64,000 nucleotides of DNA. Source: Bacteroidia bacterium (GTDB taxonomy: Bacteria > Bacteroidota > Bacteroidia > 2-12-FULL-35-15). Each line of letters starts with the position of its first letter. Within the stretch, counting starts at the first letter, position 1. Positions 54,377-63,657 of the stretch are shown piece after piece. Made by a program: the position numbers and the translations under genes. The notes beneath the pieces were generated by a model. It ran no database searches. It was given only the letters and a program-made list of their open reading frames with translations, and had not been told where the DNA came from. The DNA lies in the NCBI GenBank assembly GCA_020051175.1, contig JAGVJJ010000042.1:26720-90719 (forward strand), in the 5' to 3' direction.

Positions 54377-56251
54377 CTATTTTCCTTTAGTTCCGATTTT
54401 AGCGGCCTTTTCCAGCTGCGCTATTCTTTCCTGGAGTTCTTTTATCTGCTTTTGCTGCTCTTTAACGGCACCTACCAGTATGGGGGTTAATTTTGAATAA
54501 TCTATCTGCATAGGTTCCGTCTTCACATCTCCATCCGGTTTGCCCGACACTGCTTCAGGATATACTTCATAAAGTTCCTGTGCAATAAACCCTGTTCTCA
54601 CAATGCCTGGCGCTGATTTGTACTCATAACTCCTTGGTACCATTTTATTTACCATGTCCAACGCATCCATCAAATCTGTAATATTCATTTTTAGCCTTTT
54701 ATCAGACGTAGTGCTGTATAGCACACCACCAGTACCATCGCCTTTAACTGTTCCAATAAGCAAATTGCTGCCATTATCGAACCTTAGATAGTTATTTGTA
54801 CCTGCCGCATTGGGAGCTGGTCCTATACCTATCCGTATTCCATTATCAGCAGTTGAGCCATTTATATTGTTAAAAGTAGCAATATAAGTACTAGCGCCTG
54901 CCCCATCAAACGAAACATGCAACGGTGATGTAGGATTAGAGAGACCTATCCCCACGCGTCCATCAGTACTGGTTATAACCATTCGTGTGGTTGCTGTACC
55001 GCTTGCATTTATTGTCTGAAAATAAGTTCTGCCGGCATCGTGTGTAAGTTTAAGCCCATACTCCTGCGCACTGACTATTCGCACTGTCTTGAATGTATAG
55101 CTGCTAAGGAGATGATCAAAAGAAGAGCCATCTGTGACATGAAGAATTCCGGCTGGAGAAGTTGTACCTATTCCAACAAAACCTGTTGGAGTAACAGTCA
55201 GAACTGAACTTACAGACAAGTTGTTTGTAGTTCCTATACCAAAATTATTAGCAGGAGAAAGGCCAGCAAACATACTCCCTGGATTAGTATTTTTATATTC
55301 AATCAACGCATTTTGGTTACCTGCCCTCTCTAAAGTAAGTAATGCCGGTGAGTTATGTAGCAGATGTAATCGCGTTGCGGGGGTTGTTGTACCAATACCT
55401 ACAAAGCCGCTGCCATCTTCAAATACAGGAGCAGTTGTACATACAGCAGAAGTACCATTATTCTTTAAAATGTAATTTGTACTTGTACAACCTACCGGTC
55501 CTGTAGCACCAGTACTTCCGGTGGTTCCAACATCACCTGTACTGCCAGTGCTACCAGTATTTCCTGTAGACCCTATATCACCTGTACTACCAGTATTTCC
55601 TGTTGAACCCGTGTCGCCTGTTACGCCCGATGAACCACTATCTCCTGTGACACCAGTGGGTCCATTATCACCTGTGACACCGGTTGCCCCTGTATTACCC
55701 GAACTACCTGTTGCGCCAATGAGCCCGGTACCACCAGTAGCGCCCGTGGCCCCCATATCACCAGTTGTTCCTGTAGCACCTATATCACCCGTAGATCCGG
55801 TAAAACCTGTTATTCCTGAATTACCGGTAACACCAGTGCTACCAGTGTAGCCAGTATCACCCATAACCCCAGTAGCCCCTGTAAATCCAATAGGACCCGT
55901 AAATCCTGTGCTACCGGTTGTACCCATTGCTGCAGAGGAATTATTACACAATGAAATCCAACTTGTAGTTGAGGCGCTCCAGTAAAAAAAGCAATCCATA
56001 TCAGTATCAAATACCAACAGGCTATTTGCCGGTGCAACTATACTTGTTCTTTGGCTGGCGGTCATCCGGGGAATAAGTATTCCCTTATTATTTGCCGGGC
56101 TTGCATCAACATCCAAAAGTGCTGAGGATTGAGGAGTAACTGTGCCGATACCAACATTTTGGGCACATGAACTTTCACTATCTAATAATAAAATAACGAA
56201 TGAAAGTATTAAGAAAACTGAATATCTGAAACAATTTATTTTCAAGATCAT
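54377..56251 (-). CDS. Secreted tail-fibre-like protein 1: conserved head, 48 uninterrupted G-X-Y triplets, VGIGT-motif body, peptidase-S74 chaperone domain, coiled coil
   Basis: Signal-like [31 protein letters not shown]. Head: [17 protein letters not shown]...GILIPRM. Collagen-like region at aa 110-253. Junction: [42 protein letters not shown]74: [11 protein letters not shown]...PRSYEYK...[16 protein letters not shown]-terminal heptad-rich [19 protein letters not shown]. Confidence 0.85.
54542..54706 (-). other. Peptidase S74 (intramolecular chaperone of tail fibre/endosialidase) domain of protein 1
   Basis: [55 protein letters not shown] matches the SD.R.K.NI ... Y.Y ... GfIAQE....P..v consensus. 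Confidence 0.75.
55493..55924 (-). repeat. Collagen-like G-X-Y coding repeat (48 triplets, no interruption)
   Basis: Counted from the translation, [12 protein letters not shown] ... GAT GPV. The antisense frame gives the artefactual PV-rich ORF 55521..55850. Confidence 0.9.
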
Positions 56252-56287
56252 ACTATTAATGCTTTTTCTTAATATTTTATTCTAAGA

Positions 56288-60528: not shown

Positions 60529-63500
60529 CTAATTAACTCTGATATATAAAGCCGTTTCAGCATTGGCTCCCGGCACTGTAAATGATGAACCACCATAACT
60601 TCCATATTGAGTAGCAACAGAGGCAGTTGATGTTACTTTAACAACACCAGTATAAAAATGGGCACAGGTACCTACCCCAAAATCGTGGTAAGTACTGGTA
60701 GCGGTGCCGGAGCCAGACAAAAACACCTGTGATATATTGAACCCCGTTCCACCACTGAATCCTAGTTGACCCGGACAGGAGTACAATGTGTATATATAAA
60801 CACCAGGCTGTAAAGTAACTCCCGCTGTTGTATACGTACCACCAACCGGACAATTTGCACCAACAGGTAAAGCTCCCCTGCTCACATCGCTTGCTGCAAC
60901 TGCTTCCTGAGTACCTGTGTTTTGCCAGCTTGCAAGTCCCGCGGCATTTGAAGTAAGCACTTTACCATTTCCCTGGGTACCATCCACAATCTTTATATCG
61001 CCCTGCACATCCAGCTTAGCGCCCGGACTGACAGTACCAATACCAACGCTGCCCAAATTTGTAATCCTTACTTTGGTATTGGTATTAATGTCTACAGCAG
61101 TTCCTGCTGCATTCCCGTGATTCTGGGGAAGCGACATAAAACTCCATCCCCTGTTATAAGCAATATAAATGCCATGAGCGGCATCTATACCGTTAGAGCT
61201 AACTTCAACCTGAGTACTCGCAGTTGTGGATACCTTTAAGTTATTCCCTATCAGTGTGCCTAATTCACTGCCTGTTTCGCCAATATGTGTATACGAGGAA
61301 AATTTAATATTCTTGAATGGGCCACCTAAATCTAAAGCCTGTTCTGGCGAAGTGGTTCCTATACCAATTTTGCCTGCAAAATAATTTTTTGCTGAAATGC
61401 TGGATTGATAGAGGCCATATTTGTTTGTTATAGCAGCAGGCCCATCCACATTATCAATGTAAACACCATACGAATTAGTAACAGTGCCTGCACCACTTCC
61501 CGTATAGGAGCCAACCCTTGCCCAAAGGCCAATCTGCTCTGTCAGAGTTCCTAAAAAACCCGGGTCAGTAGTGAAGTTTTCTATATCCAAACCAACCCTG
61601 TACCCATTATCGGTTACACCCGCTGAGATCGGAAGCTTATAAGCCACCATCTGATTGTTTCGAATAAAGTTTGTACTGTTTCCGGTAACCGAAGGATAAT
61701 CTGTGTTTGCAAGAAAAGTAGAAGTGCTTCCATTTCCGGTCACATTGAGATTTGCAACAGGAGATGTGGTACCTACTCCAACACGCCCCGTTATTCCGTT
61801 AATTGCAAGCGCATTCACGGTATTGGCAGTAGTTCCTAAAACAAGGTTAACACTATGCCTCGCCCTTATTAAACCAGCCGTTTCTGTACCGGAACTATCA
61901 TTGATGTACCCTACAGCAACGCTTCCATCGACCTTTCCAAAACCTGCAATAAGATTTTCTCCGATTGTAGAGACGCTGTCGTAAACATGAAGCTTATATA
62001 ATGGGCTCACAGAAGCAATCCCGACTTTTCCACTCGAAGTAAATGTTACTGCAGGTGAAAATGCCGCTGATCCAAAAACACTATTGTTGGCTGACCCAAT
62101 GTGCAACTTCCTGTTCGGATCAGTAGTATAACCAAAGCTTATGTAATGCTGAGGGTAAAGCCCGGAGAGATAGGAGCCGATAAGCAAATCGTTGTGTAAA
62201 TAGCCGGAATAGTTGATAGCAGTAGATGCCGGGCCTGGATAAAAACGAATCAATGGCTTGTTAAAAGACGTAGAATCGAAATCAAGCCTGGTTGAAGGCG
62301 AAGCTGTTCCAATACCCACTTTTCCGTTCATAAAAGTACCTGCAACACCGGAGCTGCTTGAACCGGCCAGTTTAACATATACATTTCCGCCACTGTCTGT
62401 ATTTTGAAAATAACCTGCATAAGCGGCATTCGTGCTTGTAACGGAATGTAATTTAGCATTAGGTCCGGGGCTTGTTGTACCAATGCCTACATTGCCGCTT
62501 GCATCTTCAAAAATCGGTGCAGTAGTACATACAGCGGCAGCTCCATCAGATTTCATTACATAATTTGCCGATGCACAGCCAACAGGGCCTGTTGCACCTG
62601 TAGTTCCCACGCTTCCGGTAGAACCCGTTGAACCGGTATTAGAAGTAGCACCAGTAGAGCCCGTAGAGCCGGTGTTTGAAGTAGCACCAGTTGAACCGGT
62701 GGAACCCGTGGAACCTGTATTGGATGTTGCGCCCGTGGAACCCGTAGAACCCGTGTTAGATGTAGCTCCTGTTGAACCTGTCGCGCCAGTATTTGAAGTC
62801 GCACCGGTTGAGCCTGTTGAACCGGTATTAGAAGTAGCTCCGGTAGATCCCGTAGAACCGGTGTTTGAAGTAGCACCAGTTGAACCCGTGGAACCCGTGG
62901 AACCTGTATTGGATGTTGCACCCGTGGAGCCCGTAGAGCCGGTGCTAGATGTTGCTCCTGTTGAACCGGTCGCACCGGTAAATGATGTAGCACCTGTGCT
63001 TCCAGTAGATCCGGTACTTCCAGAATCACCCGTTGAGCCTGTAGCAGAAGTTACACCCGTACTTCCTGTTGCGCCTGTATTTCCTGAATCACCTGTAGTA
63101 CCTGTAGATGCGGTTGCGCCAGTACTGCCGGTAGCACCCGTTGCACCTGTATTTCCGGTAGCACCGGTAGGACCCGTACTGCCCGTTGAGCCTGAATCAC
63201 CGGTTGCACCTGTATTGCTTGTACTACCTGTTGCACCGGTAGGTCCGGTACTACCTGTTGATCCGGTATTGCTGGTGCTCCCCGTTGTTCCTGTAGTACC
63301 TGTTGAACCGGAATTGCCAGTATATCCGGTAGAGCCTGTTCCTCCGGTAGCCCCGGTTGCTCCATTAATACCTACACCAGCAGCAATTGCCTGCCAATAG
63401 GTTCCATTGTAGTAATAAAACCTATTATTGGTTGTAAGATAAATCAACAGGCCCGTAGCGGGAGCAGTTACAGCAGCAGTATCTACAATGCGCGGAGCAA

Positions 63501-63657
63501 GGAAACCTTTGTCGGAAGAAGTTAAATCGAGCAAGGAACTTGCATGTGGACTGATGGTACCAATACCAACATTGTTTTGTGCGAATATGCTCTTATATTG
63601 AATAAACAATAAGGCAATAAGCAATGCGAAACGAAAACGTTTGTAGTTTTTTATCAT
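60529..63657 (-). CDS. Secreted tail-fibre-like protein 3 (1042 aa): same head, ~87 collagen-type triplet positions and VGIGT body, but a distinct Cys-containing C-terminal knob instead of S74
   Basis: Signal peptide [27 protein letters not shown]. Head: [33 protein letters not shown]...[23 protein letters not shown]. Collagen-like region at aa 99-360. Junction: [41 protein letters not shown]. Collar: [17 protein letters not shown]. The protein ends ...[13 protein letters not shown] with no SD.R.K motif. Confidence 0.9.
62578..63363 (-). repeat. Collagen-like coding repeat ([12 protein letters not shown] units) closely related to 59510-60175
   Basis: 262 codons dominated by GST/GAT/SNT. The antisense frame gives the artefactual ORF 62672..63400. 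Confidence 0.9.

Follow-up and report, generated by a model that had tools for sequence, protein, structure and literature searches.

Mosaic adhesive trimers (MATs) were defined as a superfamily in 2024 in the predatory bacterium Bdellovibrio bacteriovorus, as a long-sought multi-specificity recognition system (Caulton et al. 2024, PMC10769870). MATs are cell-encoded, surface-displayed trimeric beta-helices with capping loops of the form V-G-G/N-pi-x-x-P-x-x-x-L. Among the 21 paralogues of B. bacteriovorus, 13 have S74 ends (SDxxxK) and eight have other tips; all carry a signal peptide and a conserved, beta-rich N-domain of ~130 aa, and they have no known outer-membrane export signal. Described members include Bd2133, Bd3182, Bd1334, Bd2439, Bd2734, and Bd2740, with structures under PDB 8OND, 8OJN/8ONB/8ONC, 8OML, 8OL4/8ONF, and 8ON4, and the S782A substitution abolishes cleavage of Bd3182, so that S74 autocleavage is functional in MATs (PMC10769870). 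Here we describe three tandem fibre genes in a 64,000-nucleotide (nt) stretch of DNA from a Bacteroidia bacterium (GenBank assembly GCA_020051175.1, contig JAGVJJ010000042.1, positions 26,720 to 90,719), which was analyzed at its full length and is called the window below. We propose, with a probability of roughly 0.7, that they specify cell-encoded MAT-type trimeric fibres of a Bacteroidota architecture, which would be exported by Sec, trimerised by an S74 chaperone or a tip, cleaved, and displayed with their C-termini outward.

Fibres of this kind have already been published, and the basic concept is not new: Table S3 of PMC10769870 lists MATs from the Fibrobacteres–Chlorobi–Bacteroidetes (FCB) group, including a “collagen-like” protein of Saprospiraceae and an “S74-like” one of Dokdonia. 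The literature that we found under the name “mosaic adhesive trimer” deals only with predators, and the host here, unlike Bdellovibrio, is a Bacteroidia metagenome-assembled genome (MAG) and not a known predator. Like the Bdellovibrio MATs, the three proteins are cell-encoded members of a multi-paralogue set, with Sec signal peptides, a conserved N-end and a variable C-end, a capping-loop body with direct sequence homology, and a mixture of S74 and non-S74 tips. Unlike them, they begin with a ~65-aa PF26696 module instead of the ~130-aa N-domain, have a Gly-X-Thr stalk of 48–88 triplets and a two-Cys junction between the N-end and the body, and lie in a tight tandem array with strain-level exchange of cassettes at the stalk repeat.

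The genes follow one another on the minus strand with intergenic gaps of 36 and 53 nt, and encode proteins of 624 aa (fibre 1, 54377..56251), 1395 aa (fibre 2, 56288..60475), and 1042 aa (fibre 3, 60529..63657), exactly as the initial annotation of this DNA had given them. The shared modular plan that it described is also present in all three: a signal peptide, a head module, a collagen-like stalk, a conserved junction, and a motif-bearing body, which is a short beta-helix in fibre 1 and long in fibre 2. Fibre 1 ends in an S74 chaperone, fibre 2 in an S74 chaperone with an insertion and a long coiled coil, and fibre 3 in a linker and a rare, beta-rich tip, with no S74 domain. In databases, proteins of this type are labelled “tail fiber domain-containing protein”, with PF26696, Collagen, and S74 domains. 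Signal peptides, called by eye from the sequence, span residues 1–30 of fibre 1 (56162..56251, minus strand, as for all fibre features below; predicted cleavage between SCA and QN), 1–28 of fibre 2 (60392..60475; AYA and QN), and 1–26 of fibre 3 (63580..63657; IFA and QN). By this heuristic reading, every copy has the Sec-type leader that had been claimed for it, with a basic N-region, a hydrophobic core, and a cleavage site between Ala and Gln-Asn. Cleavage before Gln agrees with the Bacteroidetes Q-rule. A lipoprotein reading was rejected for fibre 1, where E-S-S precedes Cys29 and the Glu at −3 leaves no lipobox, and for fibres 2 and 3, which have no Cys at that site.

The link to MATs is carried by the fibre bodies, which lie at 54707..55366 in fibre 1, 56960..59380 in fibre 2, and 60925..62451 in fibre 3, the last including the linker before the tip. 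In phmmer searches, the body of fibre 2 matched 8OND at E 6.2e-7, and that of fibre 3 matched 8OND at E 2e-5 and 8OJN at E 0.03. A family profile (A5), built on the beta-helix-type, capping-loop region of fibre 1, matched 8OND (1.6e-21), 8OJN (3.2e-11), 8OML (4.1e-10), 8OL4/8ONF (2.5e-6), and 8ON4 (2.6e-6) in the PDB. Of these, 8OND is Bd2133 of B. bacteriovorus (PMC10769870); 8OJN, 8OML, 8OL4, and 8ON4 were deposited as “cell wall surface anchor family protein” and are taken to come from the same study. In addition, the linker of fibre 3 can be aligned with the stalk peptide found before the beta-sandwich tip of Bd2133. The same profile also matched the phage fibre tips 6F45 and 8JOV, MyRF, and the GA-1 neck appendage chaperone 3GUD.

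The bodies are punctuated by a motif that had been reported as five to eight copies of xVG(I/V)GT..P...L per protein. Repeats are indeed present in all three fibres and far above chance: the strict form [VI]G[IVF]G[TIL]..P occurs four, six, and six times in fibres 1, 2, and 3 (~0.003 expected in shuffled sequences), and a looser capping-loop form five, seven, and six times, one of these copies being the start of the head. Because its consensus equals the published one and the bodies are homologous to solved MATs, this motif reads as the MAT capping loop.

The C-terminal ends repeat the division seen among the MATs. Peptidase_S74 (PF13884) was matched at 55.0 bits in fibre 1 (residues 516–568) and at 50.7 bits in fibre 2 (residues 1173–1229), over a cutoff of 22, and was not matched in fibre 3 in the Pfam scan, so the profile search upholds the assignment of S74 domains to two of the three C-termini. 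These chaperones (54380..54706 in fibre 1 and 56291..56959 in fibre 2) carry the S-D-x-x-x-K dyads SDKRLK (Ser516/Lys521) and SDRRAK (Ser1173/Lys1178), with predicted released fragments of 109 and 223 aa, and the S, D, R, and K of the motif are invariant among ten relatives. In fibre 2, the alignment to the MyRF ICA structure 7DC3 takes in the catalytic part as well as the C-terminal helix (E 1.6e-5 with a single sequence, 1.1e-11 with a profile). The coiled coil that had been placed after the S74 domain is therefore present as a helical part, and it belongs to the chaperone domain itself. MyRF is a further case of non-viral reuse of an S74-type chaperone; it shares the capping-loop motif, and a beta-helical stalk lies upstream of its chaperone. 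Unlike the fibres, it is a eukaryotic membrane-bound transcription factor in which cleavage frees a DNA-binding domain, and it has no fibre function. A Ser/Lys-dyad S74 domain after a triple beta-helix is also found in phage tail fibres and tailspikes, such as the K1F endosialidase (3GW6), T5 pb1 (4UW8), GA-1 (3GUD), 6F45, and 8JOV.

Fibre 3 is the non-S74 member of this set, and its tip (residues 912–1042, 60532..60924) has only three real relatives, which are 54–73% identical and have no Pfam domain. Other matches to the tip query cover the preceding linker only, and this linker leads elsewhere into C1q-named, Fib_succ_major, S74, and other ends. An AlphaFold2 model of the tip is all-beta with a predicted local distance difference test (pLDDT) score of 62, and Foldseek gave no significant match for it; the best were GOLD, the TNF-like domain of Pgp3, the receptor-binding protein head of Tuc2009, and CBM6, at E ≥ 0.02 and TM-score ≤ 0.36. 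Because of the low-confidence model and the lack of a significant fold match, the tip can be called beta-rich and nothing narrower. It is retained in the fibre 3 orthologue of a related lineage (84% identity over the whole protein; L096, see below). Two S74 tips and one other tip correspond to the S74/non-S74 split of the MATs.

At the other end, each protein starts with a head module of ~65 aa, at residues 31–105 of fibre 1 (55937..56161), 29–91 of fibre 2 (60203..60391), and 27–95 of fibre 3 (63373..63579), as defined by alignment together with annotation of orthologues in fibre 1 and with profile search in fibres 2 and 3. The initial annotation had described a conserved ~70-aa head, nearly identical in the two larger proteins; it is present in all three and 83% identical between fibres 2 and 3, while the head of fibre 1 is only 39% identical to these. 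The local Pfam copy lacks the model, so the assignment to PF26696 (“PTL_trimer”) was made through precomputed annotation: PF26696 is annotated on a 100%-identical orthologue of fibre 1 (in strain L002, together with PF01391 and PF13884), on a 96%-identical orthologue of fibre 2, and on all seven matches of the head query. The head itself opens with one copy of the capping-loop motif. No solved relative of it was found by phmmer, by profile, or by Foldseek on a monomer model (pLDDT 67). Among the modules searched with profiles and Foldseek, then, the body and S74 domains have matches, and the head and the fibre 3 tip have no fold match in Foldseek. In the literature that we searched, there was nothing on PTL_trimer or PF26696.

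The head module is very widespread. In an exhaustive HMMER search, 59,340 cluster representatives matched it at E ≤ 1e-3 and 39,399 at E ≤ 1e-10, and the top matches have 3–13 copies per protein, placed N-terminally, internally, and C-terminally; for example, one 274-aa protein has three copies in tandem, and another has four followed by a tail-collar-like end. In species-representative genomes, the module was found in at least 253 places, and the loci kept were nearly all labelled as FCB (Chitinophagales, Flavobacteriales, Saprospiraceae, Bacteroidales, Marinilabiliales, Ignavibacteria, Kapaibacteria). One genome often has several such loci, and head genes often stand in tandem arrays of two to five; collagen and S74 may each be present or absent in them. 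Among cultured bacteria, Edaphocola flava, E. aurantiacus, and Taibaiella sp. KBW10 carry head-bearing genes. Given these cluster numbers, the repeated copies, and the internal and C-terminal positions, the head is a generic, repeatable terminal or knob module rather than a family-specific N-terminal cap or a dedicated anchor. In the three fibres, it may act as a trimer nucleus for the stalk, in surface docking, or in both.

The same module was identified in 15 contigs of IMG/VR, and in 13 of them it lies at the extreme C-terminus of fibre-like open reading frames (ORFs) of 345–2427 aa; portal, terminase, DNA polymerase, endolysin, and tail genes were found on contigs of this set. In L091 and L092, it is internal, at residue ~183 of 827. 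Fibre-like proteins among these contigs (L081–L095; e.g., L082, 927-8210) reach 2427 aa, with 12–16 capping-loop motifs and a PF26696-type end.

These phage proteins raise the question of whether the three genes are a prophage remnant, or the fibre set of a tailocin or other phage-tail-like particle encoded elsewhere. Fibre proteins of real, uncultured phages do end in the head module at their C-terminus; residues ~270–616 of fibre 1, covering beta-helix and S74 domain, are 25–30% identical to tail fibres of Pelagibacter phages and cyanophages in GenBank; 6F45 and 8JOV are matched; and only 343 nt of upstream genome are in view. However, the head, stalk, and junction were not found in GenBank phages, and Sec signal peptides on all three proteins do not suit the cytoplasmic assembly of a virion or tailocin. 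The 54 kb on the other side are free of phage genes: a Pfam scan of every other window ORF of at least 120 aa found no integrase, capsid, terminase, baseplate, or tape-measure family, and a strict screen against PHROGs, in which 38 of the 75 ORFs came from the window and the others from the flanks of the five closest related loci, listed no structural phage family. The window ORFs instead encode housekeeping, glycan-utilisation, and other cellular proteins, namely glycoside hydrolases, a TonB-dependent receptor, an E1 dehydrogenase, endonuclease III, RecN, HMG-CoA reductase, PEP-utilising enzymes, two-component systems, a sigma-54 activator, and cargo of the type IX secretion system (T9SS). 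The earlier claim that the 64 kb hold no phage genes is thus supported by two scans, and likewise by the flanks of relatives. The proposed inspection of the surroundings for phage genes and further paralogues could be made in relatives, and upstream of the array two of them (L002 and L096) have more fibre paralogues and no phage genes in their versions of the locus; around 78 related loci, the genes conserved as neighbours are not of phage type, and no sheath, tube, or baseplate family is among them. We therefore consider a phage or tailocin origin of the array very unlikely, and the view of the fibres as host-encoded trimeric surface fibres that reuse phage fibre-assembly chemistry holds as far as they are cell-encoded and fit their MAT relatives, with trimer and surface location coming from homology and the concept itself having been published in 2024.

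Another use of the shared module would be defensive: phage-type receptor-binding modules on the fibres could cover or block receptors of the cell itself, or serve as decoys, and thereby reduce adsorption of phages whose fibres have PF26696 tips. The same ~65-aa module ends phage fibres and starts cellular ones, and hypervariability at the strain level is typical of loci in phage–host conflict. This reading is purely inferential, though, and the module is so common (59,340 clusters), and so often repeated within a protein, that it looks like a structural unit rather than a specific receptor binder. The terminase of one module-carrying phage resembles those of Rhodoferax, Pelagibacter, and Microcystis phages, and we regard an anti-phage role as more improbable still. 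The idea that phages carrying the head infect Bacteroidota, which would have backed binding of the head to a Bacteroidota surface, found no support in that terminase; a second gene from head-carrying phages gave no match when used for the same host question.

Between the head and the body, the MAT-type fibres carry a collagen-like stalk followed by a junction. The stalks lie at 55493..55924 (fibre 1), 59510..60202 (fibre 2), and 62581..63372 (fibre 3), and score 75–91 bits with Pfam Collagen, above cutoff in all three. Their lengths had been put at 48, ~74, and ~87 triplets; the first is exact, and we count 77 and 88 for fibres 2 and 3, where Gly does not occupy every triplet. Gly is found at position 1 in 48 of 48, 64 of 77, and 74 of 88 triplets and Thr at position 3 in 35, 69, and 81 triplets, respectively, and each stalk has three Pro. 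The Gly is replaced by Ser 12 times and Ala once in fibre 2, and by Ser 13 times and Ala once in fibre 3, mostly as S-N-T. The underlying DNA consists of tandem repeats of 36/108 nt in fibre 2 and 36/189 nt in fibre 3. Because of the Gly-less triplets and the near-absence of Pro in fibres 2 and 3, it is uncertain whether a canonical collagen triple helix forms. After the stalk, the junction GATGPVGC-x15-C...FED.SG.VG.GTT.P is common to the three proteins, in keeping with the conserved post-stalk junction reported before; it reads GPVGC-x15-C...FED.SG.VGIGTT.P in fibre 1 (55352..55501) and was located by motif search in fibres 2 (59381..59518) and 3 (62452..62589). Its Cys pair is kept in relatives P0003, P0027, and P0081. 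Long antisense or out-of-frame ORFs also occur at the stalk repeats (59538-60212 and 62672-63400 on the plus strand, 62556-63029 on the minus strand), with products such as PVEPVLPV... repeats; these are by-products of the triplet-repeat DNA and not genes.

Comparison of strains shows that the array is mosaic, and that the mosaic has its seam in the stalk. A sister strain, GCA_049276555.1 (L002), is 99.07% identical to and collinear with the window over 13.9 kb (46290-60169), and the identity falls to ~65–70% exactly within the tandemly repeated stalk DNA of fibre 2, at ~60169. On the downstream side of this break, the L002 orthologue of fibre 1 shows no difference (100% identity), and that of fibre 2 matches at 96% from residue 92 on and owes its greater length (1589 vs. 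1395 aa) to a longer stalk. Upstream of the break, L002 has a different fibre 2 head and, in place of fibre 3, a 1308-aa S74 paralogue (42% identity), a 613-aa S74 ORF, and a 1159-aa non-S74 paralogue. High DNA identity to the more distant related lineage L096 (~92% nt identity) likewise stops at window position 60170; L096 keeps orthologues of all three fibres (84%, 84%, and 91% identity, fibre 3 at 84%) and adds a 1559-aa S74 fibre upstream. Fibre genes thus number at least five in L002 and four in L096, and arrays of S74 and non-S74 paralogues recur in these two and in the closest relatives L004, L006, and L007. Since identity breaks inside the repeat against both L002 and L096, the stalk repeat probably behaves as a recombination joint for the exchange of cassettes. 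Such mosaicism is in line with the “mosaic” principle of MATs and speaks for recognition over bulk structure.

Two of the L002 genes have features of their own. The 1308-aa S74 fibre (5861-9787) has an ILEI/PANDER-like domain (PF15711, 32.5 bits) inserted in its body at residues 828–902, a case of an additional domain built into the shaft. The 613-aa S74 ORF (3942-5783) lacks signal peptide, head, and stalk and opens directly within a capping-loop repeat; its start may have been mis-called, or it may be a truncated paralogue that recombination left behind.

The stalks also recall bacterial collagen-like proteins (Scl1 and Scl2 of Streptococcus, Lcl of Legionella, BclA of Bacillus), in which a G-X-Y stalk lies between globular trimerising domains and the number of repeats is polymorphic among strains. 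The GPT repeats of BclA have Thr-rich Y positions, as do the stalks here. By analogy, the fibres might form a structural coat or matrix on or around the cell, either a nap with collagen stalks or a scaffold for biofilm, like the BclA filaments on the Bacillus exosporium, with tips that have no ligand specificity. The long G-X-T stalks match Pfam Collagen and, weakly, Scl/Lcl models; stalk length differs among strains; a neighbouring T9SS cargo (52247-53116) is likewise collagen-like; and the tip of fibre 3 has no recognized ligand-binding fold. We nevertheless consider a coat unlikely. Diversified C-ends, conserved N-ends, and whole cassettes swapped among strains are the signature of recognition proteins, and the nearest solved relatives are adhesins, one of which has demonstrated glycan specificity (PMC10769870). 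The fibres score 68–99 bits against NCBIfam equivalog cutoffs of 325–500 (SclA, SclB, Lcl), far under threshold. They also differ from Scl, Lcl, and BclA in that no LPXTG anchor is present at their C-termini, their stalks are nearly free of Pro and in two of three are regularly interrupted by Gly-to-Ser changes, and the C-terminal part is a MAT/S74 fibre and not a V-domain or C1q-like domain.

Variable C-termini on long fibres, at loci that differ among strains, would also suit contact-dependent scaffolds for toxin delivery or secreted, bacteriocin-like proteins. This we hold to be the least probable of the readings considered, as Pfam and NCBIfam find no toxin, nuclease, lipase, or pore-forming domain in the fibres, and no small immunity-like gene follows any fibre gene (the gaps being 36 and 53 nt, with a convergent gene downstream). 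Moreover, the fragment that S74 cleavage would free is the chaperone itself.

If the three proteins are MAT-type fibres, their assembly could proceed as follows; trimerisation, cleavage, orientation, surface location, and adhesive function are all inferred here from sequence. The chains would be exported by Sec to the periplasm and cut by signal peptidase I before the Gln read at each leader. Three chains would then be set in register, with the S74 chaperone nucleating the intertwined beta-helix body in fibres 1 and 2, while the PF26696 head and the Cys junction, which flank the G-X-T stalk, presumably nucleate or lock it. By homology to Bd3182, K1F, T5, and MyRF, the Ser/Lys dyad (S516/K521 or S1173/K1178) would next cut the chain, freeing the 109- or 223-aa chaperone fragment and exposing a mature C-terminus. 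Fibre 3 would instead keep its independently folding, beta-rich tip, as non-S74 MATs do. Following the logic of MATs, the conserved N-ends would lie by the cell and the variable C-ends would point outward as ligand-binding tips, so that the array would provide a small repertoire of adhesive specificities, which recombination in the repetitive stalk DNA may reshuffle among strains.

As regards the route across the outer membrane, T9SS cargo adhesins (SprB-type, with PF18962 or PF13585 C-terminal domains and PorP/SprF partners) come from the same phylum and have a presumed cell-surface destination. Unlike these, the window fibres have neither the type A (PF18962) nor the type B (PF13585) T9SS C-terminal domain at E up to 0.1, and no PorP/SprF gene lies near the array. 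By Pfam, five other window genes carry PF18962 (2724-5114, 41901-43985, 49656-51173, 51202-52143, and 52247-53116), the same contrast between the fibres and five neighbours that the initial annotation had drawn. A custom type-B hidden Markov model found nothing in window 40001-64000 or in loci L001 and L002. One of the five cargo genes, 52247-53116 on the plus strand, lies 1.3 kb from the array and encodes a 289-aa protein with a signal peptide, ~60 G-F/T/S-T/S triplets (Pfam Collagen, 95 bits), and a type-A C-terminal domain; it is an aromatic-rich, proline-free collagen-like T9SS cargo, and a gene of the same length is found at the syntenic position in L002.

Other members of the family are closer to the T9SS. 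In P0030, P0035, P0050, P0088, and P0105, a type-A domain (PF18962) is placed after the S74 domain and coiled coil. Autocleavage would thus remove the secretion signal from the fibre that it serves, and one may ask whether cleavage comes before or after transport. Of 78 related loci, 19 have a type-B (CHU_C) cargo gene no more than ~10 kb from the head gene, and nine of these 19 also have PorP/SprF. Several lineages have head genes directly upstream of CHU_C and PorP/SprF: in Bacteroidales and Marinilabiliales MAGs, a PF26696-headed gene (~500–580 aa, no collagen or S74), a CHU_C cargo gene, and PorP/SprF follow in this order on one strand with gaps of ~10–30 nt (L042 5651-11032, L058 6556-11912, L061 9110-15718, L070 4159-9530, and also L049, L021, and L076). 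A PorE-like TPR/PD40/OmpA protein and an Omp85 protein also recur near related loci. None of the CHU_C, PorP/SprF, PorE-like, or Omp85 partner genes was found in the window, L001, or L002, and we take this neighbourhood as a lead toward a T9SS link in parts of the family.

A broader extension of these observations can be offered only tentatively, and we think it rather doubtful as a whole. Bacteroidota might deploy a very large class of trimeric fibres that lack a T9SS C-terminal domain, in which PF26696 docks the fibre at the surface, perhaps on type-B cargo or PorP/SprF, after export by an undescribed outer-membrane route, and in which the G-X-T stalk DNA serves as a built-in recombination joint for swapping tip cassettes.

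Several points weigh against reading the array as MAT-type surface fibres. Trimerisation, cleavage, and surface exposure are all taken from homology, and no T9SS C-terminal domain, lipobox, or outer-membrane export partner was found on the fibres or near the array, because of which a periplasmic or released location is possible. The occurrence of PF26696 in internal, tandem, and C-terminal positions weakens the view of a conserved anchor end, and this ~65-aa unit may not be homologous to the ~130-aa N-domain of Bdellovibrio MATs, of which the PDB entries cover the tips only. In the stalks, 13 and 14 triplets of fibres 2 and 3 lack Gly, and Pro is almost absent. The monomer models of head and tip are of low confidence (pLDDT 67 and 62), and in this strain the view upstream of the array ends after 343 nt.

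MATs are known as the recognition system of a predator, and this locus, with its thousands of relatives, suggests that Bacteroidota and other FCB lineages widely possess a related system, with an architecture of its own made up of PF26696, Gly-X-Thr stalk, and Cys junction. In the literature searched, this Bacteroidota architecture was undescribed, as were the scale and positional freedom of PF26696 and its employment at the ends of phage fibres, the break inside the stalk repeat, and the recurrent type-B T9SS neighbourhood. The T9SS signal and the lipobox mark the two known Bacteroidota routes to the surface; if proteins with neither are surface fibres, there is a gap in what is known of export in this phylum. 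The comparison of strains offers a concrete mechanism by which a repertoire may change, namely recombination inside the stalk repeat. In addition, one small module common to the ends of phage fibres and cellular fibres could link receptor binding by phages to attachment at the cell's own surface.

The DNA around the array gives a few further observations. The 343 nt (at least) upstream of the array (63658..64000, minus strand) are non-coding in all frames and presumably hold its promoter region; no match to the sigma-70, TAnnTTTG, or sigma-54 consensus was found there, and scans for sigma70-type, TAnnTTTG, and terminator signals were at or below chance. An NtrC-type sigma-54 activator is encoded 5 kb from the array (48230-49396, minus strand), and response regulators of its family occur near head-bearing genes in 14 of 80 loci; regulation of the array by this activator through sigma54 was considered but found no support, as there is no −24/−12 match upstream. 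Convergent with the array is a plus-strand gene (53298-54149) whose 283-aa product has a signal peptide and matches no Pfam family; the gene is kept beside the array in L001, L002, and L096. The C-terminus of its product, ...LTLGLQFGV, could be that of an outer-membrane beta-barrel, and the protein could be a partner of the fibres, though it is encoded on the opposite strand.

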